This document shows positions 355 to 60,419 of a stretch of DNA of 64,000 bases, in pieces. Below the pieces are notes generated by a model that was not told where the DNA came from, searched no databases, and was given only the letters and a program-made list of their open reading frames with translations. Every line of letters begins with the position of its first letter. Within the stretch, counting starts at the first letter, position 1. The DNA is from a virus. A program made the translations under genes and the position numbers. Where the stretch lies: the IMG/VR virus record IMGVR_UViG_3300029101_000001; one strand, written 5' to 3'.

Positions 355-708
355 TCATATTTTAGCAAAATCTTCTTTGACTTTAGCTTTTATCTATTTT
401 AATATGTTAAGATATTCTTTATATTCGTTAATAACTTCAGAGTCAGAAATAAGATTTTCTGAATAACTATTATATGAATTGATTAAATCAAATTCTTCAT
501 CAACCGTAAGGAATCTTCTAACTATAGCTTTTACACAATCTTTATAATTAGGCTATCCGTTTATTAATACCTATATAAAACTATAGTAAGTTTTTTCTTT
601 TACGGTATTATCTAAATCAGATACTTTAACACTAATTTCTTTTATATCATAGTTATAGTAATAAGTACCGTTCCCAAGTTTTTGGATTGTCTAAGGATAA
701 ACGTCCAT
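355..708 (-). CDS. hypothetical acidic protein, 117 codons with 4 in-frame TAG codons; overlaps the RT 3' end by 56 nt
   Basis: Codon-by-codon minus-strand read, ATG at 706-708, TGA at 355-357. TAGs at 691, 571, 553 and 394. Frame differs from the RT frame. Confidence 0.4.
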
Positions 709-1927
709 TTGTATTCTATTCGGCTCTAACATAAGGTGTTATTTTAAAATTTATAGGAAATTTGTATCTAAGCAAAGAATAGTGTAATCTCCTATTCTTA
801 CTTTTAAAATAGTAGGGTTTATTGTTATACATGAAATGCACTCGAAAATGATTGTCATAATCAACAACCTCTACAATGTGAATATATTTATTATAAAACT
901 TAGATATGTTAACTTCTTTTCCATTCCAGTTAGAGAATTTCAATCCAGTTAACTCCTCTACCTTTCTCAGCAAGTTCTTAGAGTTGCAAAATTTCATCCA
1001 TCCAAAATAAGACCTCATTCTTCTATTCAATTCATCTTTATCAATCTTATTCTATTTATATAGATTTATAAGCCTAAACATCCTCATTTTTATAGATTTT
1101 CTCAGTAGAACATGAGTATGATAGAATTTATAGCCTACGAAATCAATACCTCTGCTTTCTACAGGGAATATTTGATAATTAGGCTTCAACTCTAGGTTAA
1201 GAACCTGTTTCAAATATAGTTTTATAGATACTAATACATTTCTCAAATAATTCTTGTCATTACCAAGAATCACAATATCGTCAGCATATCGAAAGTAGTA
1301 CTTACATTTTAACTCCTCTTTTACCCAGTGGTCAAAATATGTCAGATATAAATTTGCAAAGAATTGTGATAGATAATTTCCAATAGGAACTCCCTTCGCT
1401 GAATAAATTATTTCTTTCAACAGTTTTAATAGTTTTTTATCCTTTATCTTTCTCTATAACATTTCGTATAAAATGTCGTGAGTTATAGAAGGATAGAATT
1501 TTTTTATATCCATTTTCAAGCAATACTTTGTTTCTTCTGGATGTTTCTATAACACCTTAAACAAATCATACTCTACTTTATGAATACCTCTATTTCGTAT
1601 AGAGGAATATGTTTGGTCTATAAATATACTAGTCCAAATAGGCTCCATAATATTCATTATAGCATGGTGAGTTATTCTATCTGGATAGTATGGAAGTCTA
1701 AAGATTAATCTTTCTTTAGGTTCGTATATTATAAAGGTACTATATTCAGAGGTTTGATAAATCAAATCCCTTAACTTATCGGATAATTCCTTATTTTCTT
1801 TTAATCTATTCTTATCATGCTGCTTGATTCCACATCTAATAGACTTATTTCTTCTAGCTTTATCGTCAGCTAGTTCGATGTTATCTTCAGCGTATACTTT
1901 CTCGTGCAAATATCCTACACGTTTCAA
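653..1927 (-). CDS. DGR reverse transcriptase; gene contains at least 3 in-frame TAG codons read as sense
   Basis: Track ORFs 1547-1927, 1052-1420 and 716-1030 are all in one frame (coordinate mod 3 = 2). Each ends at CTA on plus strand (TAG on minus strand) and the frame continues to TAA at 653-655. Motifs RLIFRLPYYPDRITHHAIMNIMEP (RT fingers), GVPIGNYLSQFFANLYL (DGR-type IGxxxSQ signature), YADD catalytic motif. Cognate TR lies about 140 nt upstream. Confidence 0.8.
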
Positions 1928-2070
1928 TTTTTTATATATTTCATCGGAAGCGTTCGAGAATTAACCTACTAACACCCTTCATTCAACACTACGTTATCTT
2001 TTGCCTAGAGGCAAGGATATTACTTAGCAAACTAAAAAAAAATAATAAAATGTTTCTAAATATATAATAA

Positions 2071-2163
2071 CTCGACATTGGAATTGGCATTGCTGACGTC
2101 ATTGTTAGAATTGAAATAGCTGAGACCTGCATTGCTGCCATTATTCGCGTTGCTGCCTACTAG
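2071..2163 (-). repeat. DGR template repeat (TR), non-coding, adenine-rich at the variable positions
   Basis: Minus-strand sequence ctagtaggcagcaacgcgaataatggcagcaatgcaggtctcagctatttcaattctaacaatgacgtcagcaatgccaattccaatgtcgag. About 72% identical to VR1 and VR2. All mismatches sit at TR adenines, apart from one edge position in VR1. Confidence 0.85.
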
Positions 2164-2215
2164 CAGTACTTTTTTTGCCAATCAACGGTTTTTAGAAGTA
2201 ATATCCTACGATTTA

Positions 2216-4063
2216 TCATCTAAATCGATTTTTATATTGTATATCTTAAGATACTCTATTCAGAGTCCTGAACCCGACACCGGAACCGGCAACGCCGACG
2301 CCACCGTTAGAAAAGAAACAGCCGAGACCCGCATCGCCGCCATAATCCGCGCAGCTGCCCACCCGCAGCGTGCGAAGCGCTGTGCTGCTTGCGTTGCAGT
2401 AATGGTAATCGCAAATATAAGTAGTAGCACTTCCTCCAACAGCGGATGGAATTATTTCAGCGGTTTCACCTAAGTCAAATGCCTTAATATAACCATCAGA
2501 TGCTACTTCGTATCCTGCAACGGTTTTCTCTCCAACTACGTCGGTAAATTCCGATACGTTAGTAGTTGTATAGACAGTGCTAATCTCATTAGCAGCTGCT
2601 CTCACTATAACTACTCCGTCCAGGTTAGTCCAAATGTCTCCAAACGGATTATCGAACCCTCTCCAGCGAGGTACTTTAAATGTATGAGTTGCTACTGTAT
2701 TTGTGCCATCTTGAGCTGTACATTCTGGAATAACTAAATCTTTTACTCCAGTGAAGTTACCAAATTCATTGCAGTAACCACAAGGCGTAAGTGGATATGT
2801 TGCATTATATCCTGACCAACTTGTAGCTGCGTTAGCCCAATCTGTAACTCCAGGTCCCAAACCCCCTTGATGATATCCATCCGCAGTTAACTCTGCATTA
2901 TATGCAGCCTAAGAATTAAAATTAGCATATTCAATGACATAATTCCAGTAGAATATCCATTTGTAATATTCATAGCATAGCAATTCTGAACCAGCATTTG
3001 TTGCATATGTTCTCATAGTAGCTCTAGAAATATTAGTTCTAGGCTTTCCTAAATCACTTCTGAATATATCCTTAGTTTCTAATTCTGTAGTTAGATAATC
3101 ATCGTAGTTAGCTCTATTTCCTCCACCTCTAAATGCAGTAGTAGTATTAACTACTGATACAGCTTTTGGAGTTGCGGAGACTGTGGTATCAACTGTACTT
3201 CTGTATGCATCTATTAATAGTTCAGGAATTTCTACCCATGAATCATCAATTTTGACAGTAGAAGTTCTAACCCATCTTTTGTTTCCATCGCTGCCAGATT
3301 TTCCATAAAATTTAGGAGTATTAACTCTTACTGTTCCATCAGTTCCATCTAAGACAGATGGAGTTTCGCCGTCTTCTTTATAAGACCAGTCATCTGGAAA
3401 CAGATAGTAATTTACTACATCATTGTTTGCTACACAACCTCTATACGCTGACTGAATAGGAAGAGATTTATGCAACAAAGGATTACCTATTCTAGTAAGT
3501 TCCGGAGATGCTACTGTAACATCCCATTCTACTCCATAGGAATATAAATCCATATTACTATTTAGCTCAGTAACCTACTTATCAAGCTTTTGTTGTGCCT
3601 TCTACAATTCTTCCCAAGCCTCATTTAGCGCTGTAAATTGCTCTTCTAGCTTAGAACTTGAATCTGCCCATTCAGCAGTACCATCTGCTGAGAAAACTAG
3701 CATCTATCCAGACGCTCCTCCAGATGGAATATGTTTATTTCCAGAAGTAGTTGGGTGTACATAATTATTAGCATTATTAGCTATAGTACTTAACTTTTCC
3801 TTCTCAGTTTCAGTATAATTGGCTTCAGAAAGTCCCTTTCCTAACTCCTTATCTACTTTGCCTTCAAGCTCACCCTTAGTAGCTAATTCACTAATATCCT
3901 AATGCTCAGTTAAATATCCACTATCATTCTGTAACTAAGAAATTTTAGTTGGAATTGCATTAGCCTTGGCATATGTCGTATCTATAACATTTCCAGCACC
4001 ATCGTAAGTAGCTTTTAAATCATATGTGGTTTCCCCAACCTTTATAGATTTGATTGCTGCCAT
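2216..4063 (-). CDS. DGR target protein 1, tail-fibre / receptor-binding-like, about 615 codons with several in-frame TAG codons; VR near C-terminus
   Basis: ATG at 4061-4063 sits directly after an in-frame TAA at 4073-4075. Continuous reading frame verified through TAGs at 3899, 3935, 3704, 3602, 3575, 2909 and 2246, ending at TGA 2216-2218. Track ORFs 2909-3553 and 2246-2860 are in the same frame. Confidence 0.7.
2273..2367 (-). repeat. DGR variable repeat VR1 (3' end of target gene 1)
   Basis: Hand alignment to TR: 26 differences at TR adenines (mostly A to G or T) and 1 non-A mismatch near the 5' edge. GC-rich island in AT-rich DNA. Confidence 0.85.
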
Positions 4064-7000
4064 ATCATTGTATTATTAAAGTTTCATCAACTACATCGTG
4101 ATCTATTCCCTCTATGGAAGCAGTTAGGTCCTCAACAGCCTTCTACAATTCTGCTTTAGTAGCATAGTTCTTGAGAACTTCCTAGTCTACTCCAGAGCCT
4201 CCTCCTATACTTCCTCCAACAACTTTTACTGGTTTGGCAGAACTCTTAAACTGTCCTTCAATATAAATTGTTCCCATATTGTTTAAAATATTAATTGTTC
4301 ATTTTCTCCATCTACCTCTACACTAGAACCTGGCTATAAAGCGTCTATCTTTTTCTACAATTCGGCTACGGCCTAGCTAATTAGTTCTTCTACCTCAGCT
4401 TTGGTGTAGTATCTCTCTATAAGATATTCGCTTCTAACATATCCAGTATCTTGTAAATCTTTTTCTCCATAGGTGCAATAATAAGTATCTTCTTCAGTCT
4501 TACTATTCTCAACTAGGTCATCATAATCAGCTTGTGGTAAGCATACAAGTTTTGGTACTTCTTCAGTAATAGCAACTTGCTTACCTCCAGCAAATAGCCT
4601 GTTATCTTCTGTGGTAAGTTTAACAGAACTCTCAATAACTTGCTCAGTTCCTGTTTCCTCAGAAGGTTCTCCAGTTGTTCCCTATTGTACTTCTTTTTCT
4701 CCAATTTTCTAAATAGTAATATCAGAAGTTTCTACTGATGTAGATTTCAAAAGCTCAGTGCTAAATTCTTTAGCAGCAGCAGCCTAATCATCCTGATATT
4801 TTTTCTAGGTAACAAATATGAAATCATCATCTCCGGTTTCAGGAGAGTCTCCCCTTAAACTTTCTTTTGTTACGTAATCTTCGGCTATCTAATCTGATAA
4901 ATCAGATAATGACTATTGAGTAGCATAAGTAGACTGAGCATTTTCCTTAGTAAGAAATTTGTCATCAACCTGCTAAATAGTATAATAAGCCTTAATATCT
5001 TCTGTAGTAACGTAGTTTCCAAGTTTTTGCAAACCTTGAACTATTTCATCAATCTACTTCTTGGAGTAATAATTTGTAGCAACCCAGGACTGATATTGAT
5101 TAGTAGTATGATAATTCTAATCCAAATATTCCTTAGTAATATAAACCTTTGCATCATTTGTGACGTCATATACATAGTAATATGTATCAGGCTCTACCGT
5201 CCCTTCCTCTACTAACTTTAGATACTCTTCTTCAGTTAATGTTACTAAGTTCGGAATATCAGATTCAGTAGCAATCTAATCTTCACCTATAAATAATCCT
5301 TCAGACCTAACGTCTACTACTAGCTAGCTCTCTCCCTCTACTACAGGAGATTTTATCTATCCAACAGTGATGCTTTCTAAGGAACCATCTCCATCTACCT
5401 TAAGAGTTTTATCTAACTCGTCTTGGATGGCCTACTAATCTTCCTCATATTCTTTCTTTGTAACGAAGACAAAATCATCTCCTTCCATTCCCTCTCCTCT
5501 AAGGCTTTCTTTAGTAACGAAAATATCGTCTGTTTCTTCCTTAGTATAATACTTAGTCAGGGATAGAGCTAAAGAATCATTAGAGACATAATTAGTAGTT
5601 AATTCTTCCAGTGTAGCATAATCTGATAGGCTGGCAATAGTGTTATCTAAGTCTGTTCTAATCTATACTACAGTAGTATTAAGGGCCTTCTGTTTTAATT
5701 GCTCTTCTATCTTTTTTCCCCATTCTGCGGATAGGTAAAACTAGTCATCGTCTAAGCTATCCTCATATATATAATAATATGTCTCAGCATGAAGATACGT
5801 TTTACTTTCATCTATGGGCCTAAAATCGTCTGTAGTATTCTCAGACCATTCTTTATATTCAGCCTCTGTACAGGTGATTATCTAGATAGATTCATAGGAT
5901 GCTTTCCATCCTTCCTTGTATTTAATCTTAGACTTATCAATCAGCATATAAATATTTCCGTTATCTATGTTAGCAACGGTCATACCTTGATAAGCATACT
6001 TCTCTGGAATAGAATAAAGTTCGTCTAAGTTATTAACGACTGTTCTATTATCGAGAGGCTTCGGAGTTTCTACGGTTAAAGCGACACCTAAGGTAGCATC
6101 ACCTGTATATTTAAATGCCATTATTGTGATAGAATAAAGTTAATTTGATGTGGCAATGCTGAGGAGTAAGTATCTTTCTTAGTCCATACCTTGTAAGTAA
6201 ATCCATTTATCTACTCGGTAGACGTTTCCCAACCACTTAGGTCTACATTTAAATATCCAAGTCCTCCATCTACGGTAAATGAATTTAACTATGTGTTACT
6301 TCCTGGCAATTTTATAATAGCCTTACCACTTAGTGAAAATGTGATAGTTCCAGACGATTGTCCAAAAGGAACTAGCGCCTATTTAATCACACTATCAGTA
6401 TTACCAGAATACCAAGGATATGTGGCTACTACCTAAGCGGTAGCGGAAATAGAACCAGCTTCTACTCTCTTATCTGTAACTTCTCCTTTATTGTTTATCA
6501 AATATTCTCCAGCGGCATAACTCACTGTACCAGAGTGAGTATAAGTACCAATAGAATTATATGTATCAGACTCTACAGGAGAACTGTTATAAGTAATAGT
6601 TTCTTGTCTGTCAGTTTCTTCTCCAGCATCATTCTTTATAAATGTAAGTGTAGGAGTTAATAAAGCAGTTCCTACTTCTACTATTTGAGAAGTAAAACTA
6701 TAATAAAGCTATGGGTATACTAAATCTCTAACTACTGTTGGAAATAGTAAAGTATCAATAATCTCATTAAAGGGCTTGCCCTTAAGTTTCTCTACTGTAG
6801 TCCCTTCAATTACTGTTGAAGTAGTATCATCTGGGAGTTCTGTCTAATAAGTAGCTATAGTTTCTAAGTTAGTTTGTATATTAGTAATACTTTCAGTATT
6901 AGCTTCTACTTTAGTATTTGTCTCTTGTTGTGCTTCCTAAGTTTTCTATACTTCTTTCTTTGTTTCTTCTAGAGCAGGTTCAAGATTCTTAACATAGATA

Positions 7001-10000
7001 CCTGGAAGGATAATAGAAGAGGTTTCCTCTCCAATCTCCTATTCTATTAAATGAATAGCATTATCTTCCTAAGTAGATAAAATCACCTCTAAAGAATTAT
7101 CTTCCTTTAGTTCTATAGTTTTGGAATTTTGGAGACTATTCTTAATCCAATTAAGAATGTTTTTATCAACATCTATATTCTCAATAGCATTATTCAACTC
7201 AACTATAGCTTCATTGATTTTTACTATTTCTTCAGATAGATTATTAATCCCTTTTCTATTAGTATCAATTTCTCGTTGTAAATCCTCCTTCAATACAGAT
7301 ATAGAAGTTCTAATATTGCTTATATCGACTTTCAGTTCTTCTATTGCTTCTGTATTAGATTCATATTCACTAATAAAGTATAGGGCATAGTCTAGGGCAT
7401 CCTTCACAGTATTAATACCTTCTGCAACGTCACTAGTATAGGTCCATTTTTGTTCTATATACTATACTAGGTCTTTTTGCAGTTCTATGGTTCCACTAAT
7501 GTTTCCCCACAATAGACTCTACTCATCAGCAATACCTAAGTTCTTTCTTACTTTAGCTTTTTCTAGTTCTGTCCTATATTCTCCTAAATAGTTATTTCTT
7601 AAGAGAGGTATAGGCTCACATTTTATAGGCTTACCCTTTTTACCACAAGGCACTATATCTGCATTACTTACCGAAGTGTAAATAGACTGTATCATTCTAG
7701 TTTAATAATTGCTATTTAATAAATTCGTGATTATCTAGTCTTACAGGTAGGTTAATAAAACAAATTAGATTAAGAATATCTTGATAATCTGGTTTATATC
7801 CCTTTTTGAGTTTTCTTAGAAAATCCTCATACCTTTTAATAGCCTTTCTCTTAAGAGCATCCACAACCTATACGTTTATGTCCATGGTGGTGATTATCAC
7901 AGAATCCTCCACAGGTACGGAACATCGCTAGTAATCTCTCAGCCTCCATGAATTGTTTAAAGCATATTAAATAATCTATAATGTTAAGAGTCATCCATAT
8001 GAAATCTCGAGCAAATATATCTGCTTCCTAATCTCTAGTTAGACACTTATTTAGTAAAGCATCAAAGAGTTTCTTACAATAATTAATGTAGCACTACTAC
8101 AAGTTTCCTGTAAAGAAAACATCTACCTTACATTTTTTTATAGTAGTTCCTTCTATATTTCGTTCAAGAACTTCTTTAACTGTACACTCTTCTAGCTTAC
8201 CTTCTACTTCTTTATATAATTTTTCTCCATCAGTAACATAGATAGTCTCATAGTATTCCTTGTATTCGTCCGATGAATTTTCATACCATTTCATATTAGG
8301 AATAATGATATGGTCTACTACGTAATAACCATCATCCTTGACCTTAAACATACACGAGTCCAAGTCTTCTGTATGGTCATTAAGTAGGACATCTATCAGA
8401 GTAGCATCGCTTATACTAACTTTGATGATAGTATTCAAGGTAGCACTCTCACTATACTTATAGGAGTCGTAAGAAGTTACTACCTCTACATCTTCATCAA
8501 TATACTAGCCATATTCTTTTGAGAAATCTTCTATCAGTATTTCCCCATTAATTTGGGTATGTATATCAATACTAAATTCCATATTGTAATAATTAAGACT
8601 CAATAGGCCACTAACCATATTGAGCAGGGGTAGAAAAAGGTTTCCATTTACCTGCTTGTCTTATTCGTCTAGACATGAAGACGGAAGTAAATGATAAACT
8701 AATATCTTGAGGATAATCTGTCCAGATATAAGAATATCCATCTGGGGTAGGAGGTAGTTTATCTAGTCCAGAAGAAGGCTGACCATTCCAATAGTAGTTA
8801 TAGTCATATGCCTTTAGAGAAGTAACTTCTGTAGTTTCTTTCCCTTCAGCATCTATATACAGCGGATTTCCGTCCTCATCTGTTTTCTATTTATATTCTA
8901 TAACTGGTGTTATTCCCTCGGTTCTAGTATATATAGTCTATATAATAGTAGAGACATCACTCGCTACTATTTCATAGATAGTAGTTCCCTATGATTCATC
9001 AGCTCCCTAAAAAGTAAATTTAGTTCTTTTCCATATATATGGATTCTCTTCTGTTGGAAGCTCAAAAGTATCAGACCACTACTTACTTGATAGTTTTATT
9101 TCAGATTCATCGGCAGTATTAGCAGGGAGATAATGTATTTTAATAATAATACTATTAACTGCCTCACTTGAACCAGATAAATCTGATACCTACTTAAATA
9201 ATTTTTTTAAGTCGTCTTCTACATTTGATTTAGAACCGGAAGCATTACTTATAATTACTGTCCCATCAGAGATAGGATAAATCTACTGCTAATCTTTGTT
9301 GTATACAATTGTTCCAGTTGCCATATTAATGTATTTGTCTTATTTTGTCATTATATGGATTTCCATCATGAAGCTAAGCCAACTCTATTTCAGTTCTTTT
9401 TTCTTCAATATCCATTTGTCTATCTTTATAAGTAGAATCAGACTGAGCTTTAAGCCAGTTAACTTTATATTCTAACTGCATCTTCTACTATTCTAATCCT
9501 AGTCTCTATTCATCTAAGCTTTCAATCTTTTGCTGAGCTTTCTATAATTCTTGCTATAACTACTGAGCCTATTGAGAAGTTTCTTCTAATTTTTCTTGTA
9601 GTTGCTGAAGCTGATTATTTTCCTCTTTGCGAACTTGAACAGCTTTCTTAACCTTATATTTAAGGTCTGTCAGACTCTTAGATGTAAGAGCCTCAAAAAT
9701 AATATCTGGGTCCATCTGTTGACTTTTTACGAACTCTGGAATGATTGCTTTTATAGTCTATAGATCTTCCATCACTTCTGAACTAGCAGTAATATGAATA
9801 TCGTAGTCAGTAACAGTAAAATACTCAGGAAGTGCGGTGAATATCTGTTGATATTTATCCCCAAGTATAATAGTTCCAGTTAATCCTTTCTTATAAGTAA
9901 CTTTAGCCTAATTAAGACTATCTAGTAGTATCTCGCAGGTTATTAAATCCATCTGCTAAAAATAGTGCTTAGTTACTATATACGAGTTAGCTACTCCCTA

Positions 10001-19905: not shown

Positions 19906-19922
19906 AACTATTAATTTTGGCG

Positions 19923-19994
19923 TTGCCCTACTAGGATTCGAACCCAGACTAAATGATTTAGAGTCATCTGTGCTGACCATTACACCATAGGGCA
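19923..19994 (-). tRNA. amber suppressor tRNA, anticodon CUA, probably charged with Gln
   Basis: Minus-strand cloverleaf: ugcccua ug gugu aauggucagcac a gauga cuCUAaa ucauu uagu cuggg uucgaau ccuag uagggca a. Acceptor, D-arm, variable loop and T-arm nearly identical to the phage tRNA-Gln(UUG) at 34204. Confidence 0.85.
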
Positions 19995-22278: not shown

Positions 22279-22345
22279 TCCCTACTGGTATAATGGATTG
22301 CGTCTCCCGCTGGAGAAGATTCTGGTTCAAGTCCAGAGTAGGGAA
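22279..22345 (+). ncRNA. tRNA-like element with a truncated anticodon arm (4-nt loop)
   Basis: Acceptor ucccuac/guaggga, D-arm gguauaaugg, T-arm ucugg uucaagu ccaga. Anticodon arm ucucc-cgcu-ggaga has no 7-nt loop. Confidence 0.35.
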
Positions 22346-22609
22346 CTACTAAGTTGCAATATTCATATTATTGTCGGACCATAATGGGTATGCCCTGAGA
22401 CTATGCAGTTGTTGTGAAATAACTCAAAGTATTGTGGCACAGGAAGGTCTAGTCGTTACCCTTTGCTTATTTTATTAATTTCCATTTTGACTAAAAGGCA
22501 CAGCGGTGCCTTTACTCTCAAGATAAGAACAACCTTTACGTGGTTTGAGAGATAAGTAAGCTGCTTTAGCTGAAACTAATAGTTCTAGTAACAATTAAAA
22601 ATATTTACC

Positions 22610-25182: not shown

Positions 25183-26142
25183 ATGAAAACAGTATTAACC
25201 CATACAGGAAAAATCTATGTTGATACAGAACATAGACTAGAGTTCTTAACTGTAGGAGACTATGGTAAGGAGAACAACATCAAGGCTGATTTCTTAGGTC
25301 TAACTAAGGAAATCAATGGAGTAGAGAATACAGCAGTAGACCTAAGCAAGAAATGGGTAGCAACTATTTCAACTCAGAAAGGCTGTCCTATGCATTGTAA
25401 ATTCTGTGATGTTCCCAAGTTTGGATTCTATGGAAATGCTTCTATAGAAGATATGGATAGACAAATCCGAACTATTATAGAAGGCGAAAGTGTCAGAGAA
25501 ACAGACAGGTTTAATGTGCACTTTGCTAGAATGGGAGAACCAACATGGAATGATAATGTATTAGCATTTGGACTTGCTCTCAGAGGTGTGGTTAAGTCTG
25601 CAGGATTAACAGCTAAAACTGTTCATCCAGTAGTTTCCACGATGCTTCCGAAAGCAAATAATAAGCTTAGAAACTTCTTACAGGTTTGGTGTAGCATAAA
25701 AAATGAGTTCTACAATGGAGAAGCAGGCTTACAGTTTTCAATCAATTCTACAGACGATGAACAGAGAAACGAGCTGTTTGATTCTAAGAGTTTGTCACTA
25801 GCACAAATTTCTCAGTTGGCTAATGAGTTACCAATGCCAGTAGGCAGAAAGTATACTCTAAATTTTCCAGTAACCTCACAAACTATTCTCGATGCGAAGG
25901 AATTGTCAAAGCTATTTGATAGGGAGAAATTTATTGTTAAAATCACTCCTATACATGAAACGGCTTCTGCTATAGAGAATGGTTTCCAGGTAACTGGATA
26001 CTCTGATTATGACGTTTACCGTCGCTTTGAACAACCTTTATTGAAAGAAGGTTGGGATGTTATAGTGTTTGTTCCATCTAAGGAGGAAGATTCTGACCGA
26101 ATTACTTGTGGGAACGCACTAATCTCTGAAGAGAAGATTTAA
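25183..26142 (+). CDS. radical SAM enzyme (specific function unknown)
   Basis: CPMHCKFC matches the CxxxCxxC radical-SAM cluster motif. 319 aa. Confidence 0.55.
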   Translation: MKTVLTHTGKIYVDTEHRLEFLTVGDYGKENNIKADFLGLTKEINGVENTAVDLSKKWVATISTQKGCPMHCKFCDVPKFGFYGNASIEDMDRQIRTIIEGESVRETDRFNVHFARMGEPTWNDNVLAFGLALRGVVKSAGLTAKTVHPVVSTMLPKANNKLRNFLQVWCSIKNEFYNGEAGLQFSINSTDDEQRNELFDSKSLSLAQISQLANELPMPVGRKYTLNFPVTSQTILDAKELSKLFDREKFIVKITPIHETASAIENGFQVTGYSDYDVYRRFEQPLLKEGWDVIVFVPSKEEDSDRITCGNALISEEKI

Positions 26143-28696: not shown

Positions 28697-29257
28697 ATGA
28701 AAAAGACAATTGAAATCGAATGTCCTGATGGTTACAAACCAGTTTACAATGCAGAGACTGGAAAAGTAGAAATTGTGTCTGAAGACATTACTGCAAGGGT
28801 ACAGACTTACGAAGATGCTTGTAAAATCATGAGTAGAGATGTCTATGGTAATGTTCCTGCAAATTTCTCTGTTGATGCTTTACGCAAATTGCACGTCATT
28901 CTCGATGCCTTAAACGAAGGACACAAGTTCAATCTTCTCACTGGAACAGTTTGGTATCCTTGGGTTCGGTTCTTTAGAATGAAATCAGTGCCGAAAGATG
29001 CAGAGGTTATTGGACATTTTAGCTATCAGGGCGAGAAATTCGCACTGGTGGGCAGCAGCGCGAATCTTGGCGGCTTTGCGGGTCTCGGCTGTTTCAATTC
29101 TAGCTCTGACGTCGGCCATGCCGATTCCGGTGTCGGGATGCTTGCGTGCAAATCTGAGGAGATTGCTGAATACGTATCAACTCAGTTTGGCAAACTCGTA
29201 TTCGAAGCTTGTTTTGCCAGACACTTCAATGTAGGAGAATTTAAATGGCTAGACTAA
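28697..29257 (+). CDS. DGR target protein 2 (remote, trans target), small cytoplasmic-type protein with VR2
   Basis: Track ORF 186 aa. Residues LVGSSANLGGFAGLGCFNSSSDVGHADSGVGM are encoded by VR2. Confidence 0.7.
   Translation: MKKTIEIECPDGYKPVYNAETGKVEIVSEDITARVQTYEDACKIMSRDVYGNVPANFSVDALRKLHVILDALNEGHKFNLLTGTVWYPWVRFFRMKSVPKDAEVIGHFSYQGEKFALVGSSANLGGFAGLGCFNSSSDVGHADSGVGMLACKSEEIAEYVSTQFGKLVFEACFARHFNVGEFKWLD
29045..29137 (+). repeat. DGR variable repeat VR2
   Basis: 93-nt alignment to TR: 25 differences, all at TR adenines, no non-A mismatch. All changes fall in codon positions 1-2 of TR AAY codons. Confidence 0.85.
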
Positions 29258-30248: not shown

Positions 30249-30491
30249 CAAATATCAATAACTAAAAAACTTATGAAGAGAATTAGATTAATTTGTATGA
30301 TGGCTGTTGTAGCAATAGTTACGGCAGTCTGTTGTTCGTTTACTTCTAGGGAAGACCGAAATCATTTTTCGGTTGAAAAGGTATATACCGACCCTAATAG
30401 TCACATGAATGTCTATAGAGTCTCCGTTCCTGGGAGAATGTATTACGTACTTCATAATACGACTCAAGGAGGGTTATGTAAATTACAATGA
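30246..30491 (+). CDS. putative lipoprotein
   Basis: MMAVVAIVTAVCCSF lipobox-like. Confidence 0.4.
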   Translation: MQISITKKLMKRIRLICMMAVVAIVTAVCCSFTSREDRNHFSVEKVYTDPNSHMNVYRVSVPGRMYYVLHNTTQGGLCKLQ

Positions 30492-31015
30492 GCGAAACTT
30501 ATTATCTCTTAGCAGCCATTTCGTATGGCATTTTTATTGTTCAGTTCATACTCTCTTGGTTTGGTGGCGACACTGACTTGGATGTAGATTTAGATGGAGA
30601 ATTGGACATGGATGTGAGTGATATTGTCTCTTTTAAAGGACTAGTACATTTTGTAATGGGAGCAAGTGGATGGCTTTGTATTAAGCATTCAGTTTCCCAT
30701 TCTATAGAATGGTACGATTATTTAATCGCATTAATATGCGGTATTCTTTTTGTGGTTATACTTTACTACTTATATAAACTTTGTTTAAAACTCCAACATC
30801 AAGTTATTCCTGAAAAGGGTGAAGCCTTAATCGGGAGAATTGGAACAATCACTATCCCTAATGATATTTCTGGTGGTAGTTCTGTTATCTTAGTTGAGAT
30901 AAATGGAATGCTTCAAGAATTGTCAGCTTATGCTGAAGAAGAGCATAAGACGTATAAAAACGGGGACAAAGTGAGAATTTCAAAATTTGAGAATGGAAAG
31001 TATTATTTTAACTAA
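30488..31015 (+). CDS. NfeD-like membrane protein (partner of SPFH/flotillin)
   Basis: N-terminal TM segments plus C-terminal OB-fold-like GEALIGRIGTITIPNDISGGSSVILVEINGMLQELSAY...GDKVRISKFENG. Immediately upstream of the flotillin gene. Confidence 0.6.
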   Translation: MSETYYLLAAISYGIFIVQFILSWFGGDTDLDVDLDGELDMDVSDIVSFKGLVHFVMGASGWLCIKHSVSHSIEWYDYLIALICGILFVVILYYLYKLCLKLQHQVIPEKGEALIGRIGTITIPNDISGGSSVILVEINGMLQELSAYAEEEHKTYKNGDKVRISKFENGKYYFN

Positions 31016-31030
31016 AAAGAATTTTTAAAG

Positions 31031-56865: not shown

Positions 56866-57676
56866 GATAATAGGGCAAGACAAGTTAATTAAGGAAGTTA
56901 ATAGAATATTTCAGGTATTTGTAAATAGTAATTGCAAGATAAGACCGCACTTTATTCTTACAGGTGAGAGCGGGTCTGGTAAGAGCTTTACTATTAAACA
57001 GTTATGTGATATGAATGAACTTAGCTTTCTAGAAGTTAATGCAGCTCAAATAACTAAAGAGGGTATTTCTGGAAATAGTTTAAGCAAAATTCTATCTCCA
57101 CTTGTTAACTATAGTCACACACCTATTGTAGTCTTCGTAGACGAGTTTGATAAACTTTTCATCAACGGAAACACTAATAGCCAACTGGCTAATGAATCTA
57201 CTGCCAGTGTACAGAACGAGTTTCTCAAACTTTTAGAGTCTGATACTACTAGTGTTTTTGGCGATTATGGGAAGTACATATCAGTCCCTATTGATAATGT
57301 ACTATTTGTGTTTGCTGGAGCATTCAATAATGAGCCTCACATTACATTAGATAGACTAAGAGACTTTGGAGTTAAAACAGAGTTTCTTGGAAGAGTAGGA
57401 TTAATCTACAATACTAAACCTCTCACTCTAGAGGATTTGTATTCTATCTTGGAGTGTTCAGACTTGTTGCAGAATTATCTTGACTTATTCTTTAATGTAA
57501 ATAGAGAACAAGTCATTAGTGATTTGAAAGGGTATCTCGAAAGTTCTTTTCGCAATAATACTCTTGGAGCAAGAACAATTAATACTCTTATTCACCAATA
57601 CTTTATCAAAGGTGGAAAACTCGAAACTGAAGAAGTAAAAGAAATAACTTTTAACAAAAAATTAGAATGGAAATAA
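56852..57676 (+). CDS. AAA-type ATPase
   Basis: Walker A GESGSGKS and Walker B VVFVDEFDK. Confidence 0.55.
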   Translation: MTMSKIIGQDKLIKEVNRIFQVFVNSNCKIRPHFILTGESGSGKSFTIKQLCDMNELSFLEVNAAQITKEGISGNSLSKILSPLVNYSHTPIVVFVDEFDKLFINGNTNSQLANESTASVQNEFLKLLESDTTSVFGDYGKYISVPIDNVLFVFAGAFNNEPHITLDRLRDFGVKTEFLGRVGLIYNTKPLTLEDLYSILECSDLLQNYLDLFFNVNREQVISDLKGYLESSFRNNTLGARTINTLIHQYFIKGGKLETEEVKEITFNKKLEWK

Positions 57677-59217
57677 TTAATGCTACAGATGGTTACAAGT
57701 TGGGCCATCACAGAATGTACCCCGAAGGTACTGAACAAGTTTATAGTAACTGGACTCCTAGAAGTAATAAATACTTCCCAGAAGCAACCGAAGGTTCAGT
57801 AGTATTTGGTATTCAATACCTAATCAAAGAATATCTCATTAAACAGTTTGAGAAAAACTTCTTTAATCTACCAAAGAAGGAAGCTGTGGAGATGTTCTAT
57901 CGTAGAGTAAACAACTTTGTTGGTATTGAATCCGTTGGGTACAGACATATTGAAGCTTTATATGACCTTGGGTATCTACCAATTCGCATAAAGGCTCTTC
58001 CTGAAGGTTCTGTGTGCCCTATTCGGGTTCCCATGATGACCATTACAAATACTCTACCCGAGTTCTTTTGGTTAACTAACTACTTAGAGACTATTATCAG
58101 CTGTACCTTGTGGATGCCATGCACATCTGCTACTAGAGCTAGGCTTTATAAGAAAGAGCTACATCGTCATGCTTGCAAGACTGGTTTTCCAACAGATGTA
58201 AATCTTGGTTTTTGTTGTCATGATTTCTCAATGCGAGGTATGGCGGGAATGGAAGCCGCAATTATATCTGGTATGGCGCATATGACTTCTTTTGTGGGAA
58301 GTGAAACTATTCCAGCTATTGCTGCTTTGGAAGAATATTATGGAGCTAATTCAGACGAGGAATTGATTGCTGCTACAGTTCCAGCAACAGAACACTCTGT
58401 AATGTGTGCTGGAGGGGAGGAAGATGAGCTGGGCACTTTCAAACGTCTAATTAATGATTTGTATCCTTCTGGGTTTGTTTCTATTGTATCTGATACTTGG
58501 GATTTCTGGAATGTAATTGAAAATTTCTTGCCCAAGCTGAAGAAAGACATTATGGCTCGTGATGGTAGAGTAGTAATCCGTCCTGATAGTGGAGACCCAG
58601 TAGATATAATCTGCGGGTTGAGAACTAATCCTCACTTCAATACCAGAATGAAAGAAGGTAAGTATTATTGCTGCTATGCTCCGTTTAACGACGATGCAGA
58701 GTATGTTGAAGTGTCCGAAGGTCAATATTATGGGGCATATTATATGCTTGGTAAAATCTTCGGATGGAATACTACTTCAAAGGATTACCGTTATCCTAGC
58801 ACTAAGGTTGGTCTGCTTTATGGAGATTCTATTACTCTGGAACGTCAAAAGCAAATCTACTTGAGATTAGAAAACGCTCATATGGCGGCTTGTAATCTCG
58901 TTCTGGGAGTAGGTTCATATTCCTATCAGTATGCAAGTAGAGATAGTCTTGGGTTTGCTATTAAGGCTACTGCTTGCGTAGTAAATGGCGAATTGAAAGA
59001 AATCTTCAAACATCCTAAAACTGATGATGGTACTAAGAACTCTTTGAAAGGTTTGATTGCTGTCTATAAATGTCTGGATGGGAAGTATACTGCTACCGAC
59101 CAGGTCTCAATCGAGGAGGAAAAAGAGGGATGCTTAGAGACTGTCTTTGAAGATGGTATCTTGAAGAAAGAATATTCTCTTGAAGAAATCAGACAAAGAA
59201 TTGACCATGGACTTTAA
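57667..59217 (+). CDS. nicotinamide phosphoribosyltransferase family protein (NadV/NAMPT-like or the NARP1 Namat-type homologue)
   Basis: TDGYKLGHHRMYPEGT, ALPEGSVCPIRVP, FFWLTNYLETI, VSDTWDFWN, VIRPDSGDPVD align by eye with NAMPT landmarks. Confidence 0.7.
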   Translation: MEIINATDGYKLGHHRMYPEGTEQVYSNWTPRSNKYFPEATEGSVVFGIQYLIKEYLIKQFEKNFFNLPKKEAVEMFYRRVNNFVGIESVGYRHIEALYDLGYLPIRIKALPEGSVCPIRVPMMTITNTLPEFFWLTNYLETIISCTLWMPCTSATRARLYKKELHRHACKTGFPTDVNLGFCCHDFSMRGMAGMEAAIISGMAHMTSFVGSETIPAIAALEEYYGANSDEELIAATVPATEHSVMCAGGEEDELGTFKRLINDLYPSGFVSIVSDTWDFWNVIENFLPKLKKDIMARDGRVVIRPDSGDPVDIICGLRTNPHFNTRMKEGKYYCCYAPFNDDAEYVEVSEGQYYGAYYMLGKIFGWNTTSKDYRYPSTKVGLLYGDSITLERQKQIYLRLENAHMAACNLVLGVGSYSYQYASRDSLGFAIKATACVVNGELKEIFKHPKTDDGTKNSLKGLIAVYKCLDGKYTATDQVSIEEEKEGCLETVFEDGILKKEYSLEEIRQRIDHGL

Positions 59218-59644
59218 TCATCCTTTTGGGAAAGAAGCTTGCAAGAAACGACTATTAGAAGAGTATCATAAATACGGAAAGCTAATAGTCGCTTTCGATT
59301 TTGATAATACTATTTTCGATTACCATAATACTGGCGGAGATTATAGTTGCGTTATAGAACTACTTAAAGAATGCTCACTTCTAGGTTTTGAAATGATTTT
59401 ATTCACCACTGATGAAGATGATTATAAAATTATGGCAAAGCAGACAATTTGTATGCGATTAGGAATAGCAAATATTACTTCTAATACTTTATCTGCTCCA
59501 AACATTAGTAGTTCTATATTCTCTAAATCTAAGAAACCTTATTACAATATCCTCCTAGATGATAGGGCAGGTCTGGAAGAAAGTTATGAAATCTTAAAAT
59601 ATGTAGTAGATGAAATTAAACTTAATCAACAAGGAAATCAGTGA
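59180..59644 (+). CDS. HAD-superfamily hydrolase-like protein
   Basis: IVAFDFDNTIFDYH matches HAD motif I (DxDxT). Real start may be the internal ATG at 59207. Confidence 0.45.
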   Translation: MKKSDKELTMDFNHPFGKEACKKRLLEEYHKYGKLIVAFDFDNTIFDYHNTGGDYSCVIELLKECSLLGFEMILFTTDEDDYKIMAKQTICMRLGIANITSNTLSAPNISSSIFSKSKKPYYNILLDDRAGLEESYEILKYVVDEIKLNQQGNQ

Positions 59645-60419
59645 AATTAAGTACGATGTTACTAGATTTCCTGATGGAGAGCCTCAGTTTTTCCTTACTG
59701 AGGAATTAAACAGAAAGGAATCTATTGATGTCATTTGTAGAATATCTAATACTGAGGATTTATTCCTCTTAGTGCAAGTAGGAGATATTTTAGATAGACA
59801 AGAAGTAGAATGGGATTTACACATTACTTATTTAATGTCTATGCGTATGGATAGAGTAATGAGTTTTAATCGTCCATTCTCCTTGAAAGTAGTATGTAAT
59901 ATGTTAAATAGCTTAGGCTATAGAAACATATATGTTCTTGAGGCACATTCTAGTAGAACTTTTCATCTTCTTGGTGACAGATGTTTACCTTGGGAATTTG
60001 GACACCACTCTTGGATTCCAGCCCAAAGTAATATCGTGTTCCCAGACCATGGGGCGAAGGACAGATATGGAAGTAACTATTCTCACTATGGTTATTTAGT
60101 CTTCAAAAAGGAAAGAAATCTAGAGACTGGAAGAATTGAGTCCTTTGAAATAGAGGAGTCTAAGAATTGCTACTATTCTACATTTGTGTTCATTGATGAC
60201 TTGTGTGATGCCGGAGGAACTTTCCTAGGAGAGCTTAAGGTTCTCAAAGAGAGATATCCAAATAGCAAGTTTATCATAATCGTATGTCACGCAGTTAATG
60301 ATAAAGGTCTGATTAATATGTGTAATAATTTTGACCAGGTTATTGTATCTAATTCTCATAGGGATATTAATTATCGTCCCAGCAACGAGAACTTAACTGT
60401 AATAGACGTTTGTAAATAA
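59610..60419 (+). CDS. ribose-phosphate pyrophosphokinase (Prs)-like phosphoribosyltransferase-fold protein (candidate ADPR-pyrophosphokinase Adps)
   Basis: RFPDGEPQ (compare Prs RFSDGE), IVFPDHGA, FVFIDDLCDAGGTF (PRPP-binding loop). Confidence 0.6.
   Translation: MKLNLINKEISEIKYDVTRFPDGEPQFFLTEELNRKESIDVICRISNTEDLFLLVQVGDILDRQEVEWDLHITYLMSMRMDRVMSFNRPFSLKVVCNMLNSLGYRNIYVLEAHSSRTFHLLGDRCLPWEFGHHSWIPAQSNIVFPDHGAKDRYGSNYSHYGYLVFKKERNLETGRIESFEIEESKNCYYSTFVFIDDLCDAGGTFLGELKVLKERYPNSKFIIIVCHAVNDKGLINMCNNFDQVIVSNSHRDINYRPSNENLTVIDVCK

Follow-up and report, generated by a model that had tools for sequence, protein, structure and literature searches.

An Avd-less diversity-generating retroelement of a crAss-like phage with variable repeats in a tail protein and in a remote small protein

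Do the reverse transcriptase (RT) gene and the three copies of a short repeat found in a phage genome fragment constitute a diversity-generating retroelement (DGR) at work, and what does a repeat copy in a remote small gene have to do with it? The fragment, referred to as the window, is the complete stretch of 64,000 nucleotides analysed from the IMG/VR virus record IMGVR_UViG_3300029101_000001. An earlier note, made from the sequence alone, had described a complete DGR, and an RT, an A-rich non-coding template repeat (TR) and variable repeats (VRs) are indeed all present and mutually consistent. We interpret the locus as an active DGR of the Avd-less "target-TR-RT" type in a Zeta-type crAss-like phage that reads TAG as sense, and assign a probability of roughly 0.93 to this reading. 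The phage, which has a size of about 190 kb, was assigned by means of its proteins (100% match to virus sp. ctML55); a megablast comparison of the first 20 kb with GenBank phages gave no match. The relevant features are as follows.

653–1927, minus strand: DGR RT, 424 residues, TTG start at 1927–1925, TAA stop at 655–653
1928–2068, minus strand: TR-RT spacer, 141 nt, presumed non-coding RNA
2069–2166, minus strand: TR, non-coding, A-rich, adenines mostly in AAY triplets
2246–4063, minus strand: target 1, tail (fibre) protein of 605 residues, TAA stop at 2248–2246, six in-frame TAG codons
2271–2368, minus strand: VR1, coding for about 35 final residues of target 1
19922–19994, minus strand: suppressor tRNA with anticodon CTA, found by ARAGORN
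28697–29257, plus strand: target 2, 186 residues, phrog_11581 family, no TAG codon
29042–29139, plus strand: VR2, inside target 2 (residues ~116–148), codon register as in VR1

An ungapped alignment of TR (2163..2069, minus), VR1 (2365..2271, minus) and VR2 (29045..29139, plus) corroborated the three repeat copies listed previously, with a length of 95–98 nt. An independent repeat search came upon these TR/VR pairs as well. The 95-nt TR core (2069–2163) contains 30 adenines. VR1 deviates from it at 25 positions, 24 of which are TR adenines (19 A>G, 5 A>T); the sole other mismatch is a T>G exchange at the 5' edge (2162). For VR2, 21 mismatches were counted in the core (21–24 overall), and 20 of the core 21 are at adenines (13 A>G, 4 A>T, 3 A>C); the remaining one is located at the 3' edge (2070). 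The 25–26 differences per VR given in the earlier note are therefore too many for VR2. Within the inner 87 nt, all VR/TR mismatches are at TR adenines; so are the 15 differences between VR1 and VR2, as had been claimed. The tabulation of substitutions by TR base proposed in the note thus gave an adenine-specific pattern with few non-A mismatches, and the hypergeometric probability that mismatches gather on A to this degree is 7e-16 (VR1) and 3e-12 (VR2).

Both VRs are in frame with the AAY codons, as noted before, but variation is not limited to codon positions 1 and 2. The supposed invariance of the third position is contradicted by the synonymous A>G exchanges CTA>CTG, GTA>GTG and GCA>GCG, which occur in both VRs. 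TR adenines followed by a 3' G are almost always converted to G. This RT lineage may turn a template A before G into G in an almost deterministic manner, and the AGY triplets of the TR may thus be disguised glycine codons. At the 3' end of the homology, both VRs read GTCGGG and the TR reads GTCGAG; this one fixed A/G difference is kept in kind among relatives, and the candidate IMH/IMH* comprises only about 6–8 nt. A search for a long GC tract at the VR 3' ends found none. Similarly, a BPP-1-like GC hairpin 3' of either VR was not detected; the sole candidate is a weak hairpin of 5 bp that is not conserved, and it was rejected.

The RT matches Pfam RVT_1 (1e-19) and phrog_1423 (6.9e-113), and it shares 52–58% identity with RTs from crAss DGRs described before. 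Its gene begins 141 nt downstream of the TR, in agreement with the previous estimate of about 140 nt, and the two motifs reported there are found in the ORF read with TAG as sense: motif 4 in its SQ variant, IGNYLSQ, begins at residue 182, and YADD follows at residue 214. The four in-frame TAG codons (1549–1547, 1456–1454, 1054–1052 and 718–716) align with R, Q, K or N residues of other crAss RTs. The N-terminus contains no ATG. Homology begins at the TTG codon, which is kept as the start in 42 distinct relatives. A programmed -1 frameshift into the RT frame at A_AAA_AAT, starting from an upstream ATG (1944), was considered and rejected, because the A-run has 5, 6 or 7 nt in close relatives and because the ATG, unlike the conserved TTG, is missing in the 70%-identity group. 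The RT ORF is whole, and its conservation extends from end to end in more than 80 relatives. Recoding of TAG is widespread in the window: the minus-strand ORFs contain 120 in-frame TAG per 5249 codons, and ORF coverage rises from 50% to 74% once TAG is taken as sense. Among the 28 tRNAs of the window, the suppressor tRNA is 77% similar to the phage tRNA-Gln(TTG) at 34204–34276. It is needed for translation of both the RT and target 1 through TAG.

The spacer between TR and RT resembles the RNA motifs RT-17 and RT-18 (Weinberg et al. 2017, PMC5737381). Positions 1930–2018 align with the full RT-17 model (1–95) at 28.7 bits, which is below the gathering threshold of 40.4, with E = 8e-4 in a 221-nt search; the score for RT-18 is 23.9 bits. 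Judged by this RT-17 score, the spacer is a diverged relative, and not a member according to the Rfam criterion. Common to both are a CCUUGCC-loop-GGCAAAA hairpin, the elements UAGUAG and CGAA, and the location directly 5' of the RT gene. The hairpin UUGCC-UCUA-GGCAA (2001–2014) covaries across crAss DGRs, with GC/AU in four sequences and CG/GC in one. A possible closing helix is formed by 2058–2067 and 1932–1941; helices of 7–11 bp with differing sequences were found in five of seven lineages, each of them weak compared to shuffled sequences. A consensus fold of the entire spacer revealed no covariation in the close set, and in the wider set only that of the hairpin. In all relatives, the TR is located upstream of the RT at a fixed distance.

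The fibre-like character ascribed to target 1 is borne out by its match to phrog_5302 "tail protein" (1.5e-81); more than 6800 homologues exist. Its gene had been assigned to 2216–4063 with 615 codons; it actually ends at 2246 and has 605 codons. The C-terminus, ending ...LRVGSCADYGGDAGLGCFFSNGGVGVAGSGVGFRTLNRVS, fits the pattern ...GG..A..G..AGLG.F.S..GVG.....VGFR. Between the end of VR1 and the stop codon there are 22 nt. The gap from the stop codon to the TR is 79 nt and not 50 nt as noted before, yet it is too short for an avd gene, as the note had concluded. Pfam searches of selected small ORFs of the window identified neither Avd nor another accessory gene. Since DGRs of lineage 3 generally lack Avd (PMC7290462), its absence is compatible with membership among the DGRs, and it is typical of the DGRs of crAss-like phages (PMC7290462, PMC12386605). 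The ORF 355–732 downstream of the RT was tested as an Avd substitute and rejected: it has no Pfam match and no consistent linkage to the RT, as its homologues lie beside the RT in cr7_1 and 3 kb from it in cr50_1, and occur in IAS virus. It is probably a neighbouring gene of the tail module. A sequence search of the PDB with target 1 gave no meaningful match, and no Pfam or PDB sequence match indicated a C-type-lectin or Ig fold in either target.

Target 2 lies 27 kb from the cassette on the strand opposite to target 1, next to tRNA genes and auxiliary or membrane-protein genes. It matches phrog_11581 (3e-17), and virus sp. ctML55 encodes a protein of 100% identity. Its family comprises 456 clusters at 50% identity, consisting of uncharacterised proteins of about 200 residues; distant members have no RT or TR nearby. 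VR2 is internal and ends 38 residues before the C-terminus. In a profile comparison, the similarity of targets 1 and 2 was confined to the 37-residue VR segment. Profile searches with target 2 in PDB and Pfam found no relative, and the fold prediction that the note had suggested, performed with AlphaFold2, reached a pLDDT of 46 with 45 sequences and 44 with 75 sequences.

Relatives from public data were used to compare the variation of the three repeats. In 18 of 24 close relatives, no base of the 98-nt TR differs, not even where the RT identity is down to 87–92%. Of the alleles found in public relatives that share this TR, 25 of 25 are distinct for VR1 and 32 of 33 for VR2. Across these alleles, 538 substitutions of VR1 are at A and 28 elsewhere; for VR2, the numbers are 744 and 68, and 37 of the 68 fall into one column at the 5' edge. 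Non-adenine positions of the VRs are 98–99% conserved. An alignment of 45 target 2 proteins varies only at about 14 VR positions, the rest being almost invariant. In IMG/VR contigs, never more than three copies of the motif occur, which correspond to the TR and the two VRs. Such a variety of alleles, with changes almost confined to adenine sites, means that both targets are currently undergoing diversification, and VR1 and VR2 have diversified independently in natural populations. What these differences between metagenomes document is recent activity of the lineage and not of this particular genome.

Activity cannot be read from one genome, and RT, TR and VRs might be left from a DGR that was active in the past, the VR/TR differences being historical. 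A relic would gather non-A changes, however, whereas the non-A positions remain 98–99% conserved here; in phage Lera, accumulated non-A changes have been described for the pairs of TR2 and TR3 (PMC12386605). Given in addition an intact RT ORF that is conserved at full length in over 80 relatives, an invariant TR, and VR alleles that are unique in every case for VR1 and in nearly every case for VR2, we consider a relic very unlikely. It is hardly credible that we are dealing with an RT of a different class (group II intron, retron or defence-associated) to which the repeats bear no relation. NCBIfam and PADLOC models for group II intron, retron and Drt proteins do match, and GenBank labels some relatives as "retron-type" or "intron" RT, but all the matches are far below threshold: compared to the curated cut-offs, the scores are 113 of 300 bits for group II, 70 of 235 for retron St85 and 61 of 200 for Drt3a. 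Moreover, Rfam identified no intron or retron RNA, motif 4 is of the SQ variant, and a TR precedes the RT at a constant distance in all relatives.

A further alternative concerns only VR2: rather than a true DGR target, it could be a homologous copy that stays passive, such as a piece captured from the 3' end of the tail-fibre gene. Its internal position 27 kb from the RT, the restriction of the similarity between the targets to 37 residues, and the existence of distant family members without RT or TR in their neighbourhood are in line with this idea. In contrast, the changes among its alleles, of which 32 of 33 are distinct, fall on TR adenines, and the 15 A-site differences from VR1 of the same genome argue for independent rewriting. 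Codon register and the 3' GTCGGG end are the same as in VR1, and the remainder of target 2 is almost invariant. A passive copy is thus even less probable than a relic, and an active DGR with two targets is the reading that we adopt.

For Zeta crAss-like phages, publications of 2020–2025 already report Avd-less DGRs whose RT carries amber codons and whose target is a tail fibre, and PMC12386605 and PMC7290462 describe this architecture in crAss-like phages. The architecture of the cassette is thus already known, including the amber-recoded RT. The gene order target-TR-RT is common to cr7_1, LMMB and cr52_1, and there is also synteny with cr55_1. Shared with the Zeta systems (PMC12386605) are a phage size of about 190 kb, the CTA suppressor tRNA, TAG recoding of late genes, the order tail-fibre target, TR and RT with amber codons in the latter, the GxxxSQ motif, the lack of Avd, and a VR at the C-terminus of the tail fibre. 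Those cassettes are reported to have a single target each, compared to two here; the exceptions are Lera and ct1yV3, which possess three TR-VR pairs plus Avd (PMC12386605). A second VR at a remote site, in a small non-structural protein, is absent from that publication, as is the name ctML55. The cassette itself is therefore ordinary; the second target among non-structural genes is its unusual part, and the conversion of A before G and the likeness of the spacer to RT-17 are less ordinary as well. The DGR of crAssphage LMMB (PMC7290462; lineage 3 of Wu et al. 2018) likewise has the order TG-VR-TR-RT without avd, a conserved spacer hairpin plus a possible closing helix, and conversion of A before G to G; its RT is 56% identical over 94% of the length. 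In contrast, LMMB is a 98-kb Intestiviridae phage that uses the standard code, starts its RT from ATG, and has one target and another downstream neighbour gene. With the DGR of Bordetella phage BPP-1 (mtd-avd-TR-brt), the prototype that has been studied experimentally, the locus has in common a presumed adenine-specific mutagenic retrohoming, a putative receptor-binding tail protein as target, a TR-RT spacer of about 140 nt and an AAY-rich TR. The error spectrum of bRT depends on the base 3' of the adenine (PMC12875486), as it does here, although in the AC context A>C is almost missing in this lineage, whereas bRT favours dG misincorporation. Unlike BPP-1, there are two targets, one of them remote, and neither Avd, nor a GC-rich 14-bp IMH, nor a downstream stem-loop was seen. 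Without Avd and the hairpin, mechanistic parts borrowed from BPP-1 may not transfer.

With this reservation, the following course of events is plausible. TR and the 141-nt spacer would be transcribed with the RT gene or just upstream of it. As the RT contains four TAG codons, it would be made only after the phage suppressor tRNA works, which is probably late in infection. The RT would bind the structured spacer, which might also provide priming, and would copy the TR to cDNA independently of Avd, with misincorporation opposite adenines. The cDNA would then replace the homologous VR in two genes: in that of the tail protein at the receptor-binding tip of the C-terminus, and in that of the small non-structural protein, 27 kb off on the other strand, in an internal segment of 33 codons. 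With its hairpin and a possible closing helix, the conserved spacer RNA may be what substitutes for Avd-dependent RNA handling.

Gene callers and DGR finders that use the standard code would miss the cassette, as its RT is broken up by TAG codons. A very abundant lineage of gut phages keeps a DGR running, and thousands of variants of the tail protein and of target 2 are present in public data. The natural alleles provide the context-dependent mutation spectrum of an Avd-less RT lineage, which is relevant for the engineering of DGRs for directed evolution. Furthermore, the use of one template in two unrelated scaffolds offers a handle on the function of the uncharacterised target 2 family. Tentatively, and with the odds against it, target 2 may be a non-virion protein that the auxiliary-gene block supplies inside infected cells and that has a binding surface which the phage diversifies with the tail-fibre template. 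If it were true, the DGR would serve an intracellular or envelope-associated task, for example the binding of variable host defence or surface-biogenesis proteins, and the use of DGRs would not be restricted to receptor recognition.

The repeats and genes on which the analysis rests are the following:

2166..2069, minus strand: template repeat (TR), aligned without gaps to both variable copies
2368..2271, minus strand: variable copy VR1, a gapless match to the TR
29042..29139, plus strand: variable copy VR2, a gapless match to the TR
2246-4063, minus strand: target 1, the gene holding VR1, coding for a tail protein (phrog_5302, 1.5e-81)
28697-29257, plus strand: target 2, the gene holding VR2, 186 aa, without a TAG codon (phrog_11581)

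The 95-nt core of the TR contains 30 adenines. VR1 deviates from this core at 25 positions, 24 of which are adenines (19 A>G, 5 A>T), the remaining one being a T>G at the 5' edge. VR2 shows 21 mismatches, 20 at adenines and one at the 3' edge. Within the inner 87 nt, all VR/TR mismatches are at TR adenines, and VR1 and VR2 differ from each other at 15 adenine columns only. A bias towards A of this size would arise by chance with a probability of 7e-16 (VR1) and 3e-12 (VR2). The tally per TR base thus bears out the adenine-specific differences, both from the TR and between the VRs, that had been claimed in an earlier note made by a model from the sequence alone. Five small errors of that note were corrected: the differences in VR2 number 21-24 instead of 25-26; target 1 has 605 codons, with its end at 2246; its stop codon is 79 nt away from the TR; the third codon position, described as invariant, carries three synonymous A>G changes; and the reverse transcriptase (RT) has no ATG start. 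The codon register of VR1 and VR2 is that of the TR AAY triplets. The sole IMH-like feature is GTCGGG in the VRs versus GTCGAG in the TR. In contrast to the Bordetella phage prototype BPP-1, no downstream GC hairpin was found 3' of VR1 or VR2.

Translated with TAG as Gln, the RT ORF (1927..653, minus strand) encodes 424 aa and retains the DGR-type motifs IGNYLSQ and YADD noticed earlier. It matches RVT_1 (1e-19) and PHROG 1423 (7e-113); with the group II intron, retron and Drt models it stays far under their cut-offs. The identity to RTs of crAss-like phages with described diversity-generating retroelements (DGRs), including cr7_1 and LMMB, is 52-58%. Homology begins exactly at a TTG codon, which is kept in 41 of 42 distinct upstream sequences, among them cr7_1; the related locus L043 has TTA. 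A -1 frameshift from an upstream ATG into the RT frame was rejected by comparison of the upstream sequences.

In natural populations, 80 IMG/VR loci encode an RT of 70-99% identity. Of the loci with an upstream VR, the 24 closest were compared with the window: in 18 of them the 98-nt TR is identical, and this persists even at RT identities of only 87-92%. No two of the 25 VR1 alleles, the window counted in, are alike; 538 of their substitutions are at TR adenines versus 28 elsewhere. As judged from these sequences, the constant TR, the distinct VR alleles and the changes at A sites rule out a relic cassette. That VR2 is a passive second copy is likewise ruled out, by its own allele diversity (32 of 33 distinct, with changes almost all at adenines) and by its differences from VR1, since the 15 adenine-site differences in the window imply that both copies were rewritten independently. 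An adenine-masked pattern of the TR core occurs in at most three copies per contig, namely TR, VR1 and VR2. The element is a complete DGR, currently active as judged from the variation between metagenomes, and its identification in the earlier note is correct.

The mutation spectrum depends on the base following the adenine. Eight TR adenines precede a G:

2161, 2158, 2154, 2136, 2128, 2121, 2094 and 2072, minus strand: A-before-G sites within TR 2069-2166

Across the related loci L002-L081, L001 and L114-L118, TR adenines before G read G in about 93% of the VR alleles, and C or T hardly ever occurs there; adenines before A are spread over all four bases. The same conversion to G is seen in the close relatives, and again in the 70%-identity group, whose TRs are different. 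At synonymous third positions in mid-VR (GCA|G, GGA|G), 52 of 56 bases are G, four are A and none is C or T, which protein-level selection cannot account for. At A|G sites, six further crAss DGRs show G 32 times, A four times and C or T never; the counts for their A|A sites are 18 C, 14 T, 14 G and 9 A. These data suggest a context-determined incorporation of dC by the RT lineage of the window. Context dependence as such is already known, since recent work on the Bordetella RT demonstrated that the base 3' of the adenine has a dominant influence (PMC12875486). No description of a near-deterministic A>G in the crAss RT lineage, which would turn TR AGY triplets into effective glycine codons, was found in the literature.

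The spacer between TR and RT comprises 141 nt and is highly conserved. Its segment 1930-2018 (minus strand) matches Rfam RT-17 over the full model length with 28.7 bits, which does not reach the gathering score (40.4), and RT-18 with 23.9 bits. Both motifs are known from positions upstream of RT genes and have been proposed to act in retroelements (PMC5737381). Across crAss DGRs, the spacer hairpin UUGCC-UCUA-GGCAA (2001-2014) shows covariation: its stem also occurs as UUACC/GGUAA and as UUGGC/GCCAA. A closing helix may bracket the spacer by pairing 2058-2067, just 3' of the TR, with 1932-1941, just 5' of the start codon; it recurs with other sequences in LMMB, MT835473, cr55_1 and cr50_1, each time weak compared to shuffled sequences of this AT-rich DNA. 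No Avd was found among the selected small ORFs of the window that were scanned, and its absence is the rule for crAss-like, lineage-3 DGRs (PMC7290462, PMC12386605). ORF 355-732 (minus strand, 125 aa, phrog_11557) overlaps the 3' end of the RT gene. It is 43% identical to the cr7_1 gene at the same position (L001 7187-7552) and also occurs in IAS virus and cr50_1; its homologues have no consistent linkage to RTs. It is probably a neighbour from the tail module and not a DGR accessory.

The VR of target 1 encodes the pattern xLVGGxAxxGGxAGLGxFxSxxGVGxxxxxVGFR. Target 2 is flanked by tRNA genes and adjoins genes for a lipoprotein, membrane proteins and an NfeD-like/SPFH pair. Its product has a 100% identical counterpart in 'virus sp. 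ctML55' (192-kb contig), and when 45 target-2 proteins are aligned, they vary at about 14 VR positions, the remainder being nearly invariant. A profile search for its family yielded 456 clusters (50% identity); most of these proteins are about 200 aa long and are laid out like target 2. No Pfam or PDB relatives of the family were found, and two AlphaFold2 runs for target 2 gave pLDDT values of 46 and 44. In a profile-profile comparison of the two target families, only the 37 VR-encoded residues align (95% probability). No RT or TR occurs within 8 kb of 40 distant family members, some of which are tandem paralogues; thus, in the clade of the window, one member of a general phage family became a DGR target. 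In another phage, L201 (IMGVR_UViG_3300045988_171333, ~3790-7307), four distant members of the family are tandem paralogues of 67-71% nucleotide identity, with no RT nearby.

With TAG read as sense, ORFs cover 74% of the window instead of 50%. In-frame TAGs make up 120 of 5249 codons in the minus-strand block at 1-20 kb, which contains late genes (portal, large terminase, tail genes), versus 24 of 8588 in plus-strand ORFs. The matching suppressor is

19922-19994, minus strand: suppressor tRNA with anticodon CTA, 77% similar to the phage tRNA-Gln(TTG) at 34204-34276 (plus strand).

ARAGORN predicted 28 tRNA genes between 19922 and 51117, 26 of them in the plus-strand block, mostly as an array interleaved with small ORFs; the call at 22279-22346, with a two-base anticodon, is probably not a normal tRNA. 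At the start of the array lies the gene of a 319-aa protein (25183-26142, plus strand) that has a CxxxCxxC radical-SAM signature, a weak Pfam match under the cut-off and a strong match to phrog_24834. Plus-strand auxiliary genes also code for ATPases and, at 30488-32989, for a membrane protein and, after it, a 652-aa SPFH/Band-7 protein; a long repeat region rich in Ala, Glu and Lys, with a periodicity of ~33 nt (repeat families D1, D2, D6), makes up the centre of the latter. Nicotinamide phosphoribosyltransferase (NAMPT; 57667-59217, plus strand, phrog_448, 1e-182) and the adjoining ribose-phosphate pyrophosphokinase-like (PRPP-synthetase-like) protein (59601-60419, plus strand, phrog_619, 2e-51) form an NAD+ salvage pair; such pairs have been proposed to counter NAD-depleting host defences. 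The large terminase is 43-44% identical to those of unclassified human-gut phages and 25-28% to those of Crassvirales. These genome features fit the Zeta crAss-like phages, which have 175-190 kb, ~25 tRNAs, a CTA suppressor and amber recoding (PMC12386605).

The order target 1-TR-RT is the same as in cr7_1, LMMB, cr52_1 and cr55_1, and the DGR is of a kind already described, namely the Avd-less target-TR-RT systems of crAss-like phages, including amber-recoded Zeta phages. Worth following up are the second target, which lies far from the cassette and belongs to an uncharacterised family of non-structural proteins, the A-before-G rule and the RT-17-like spacer.
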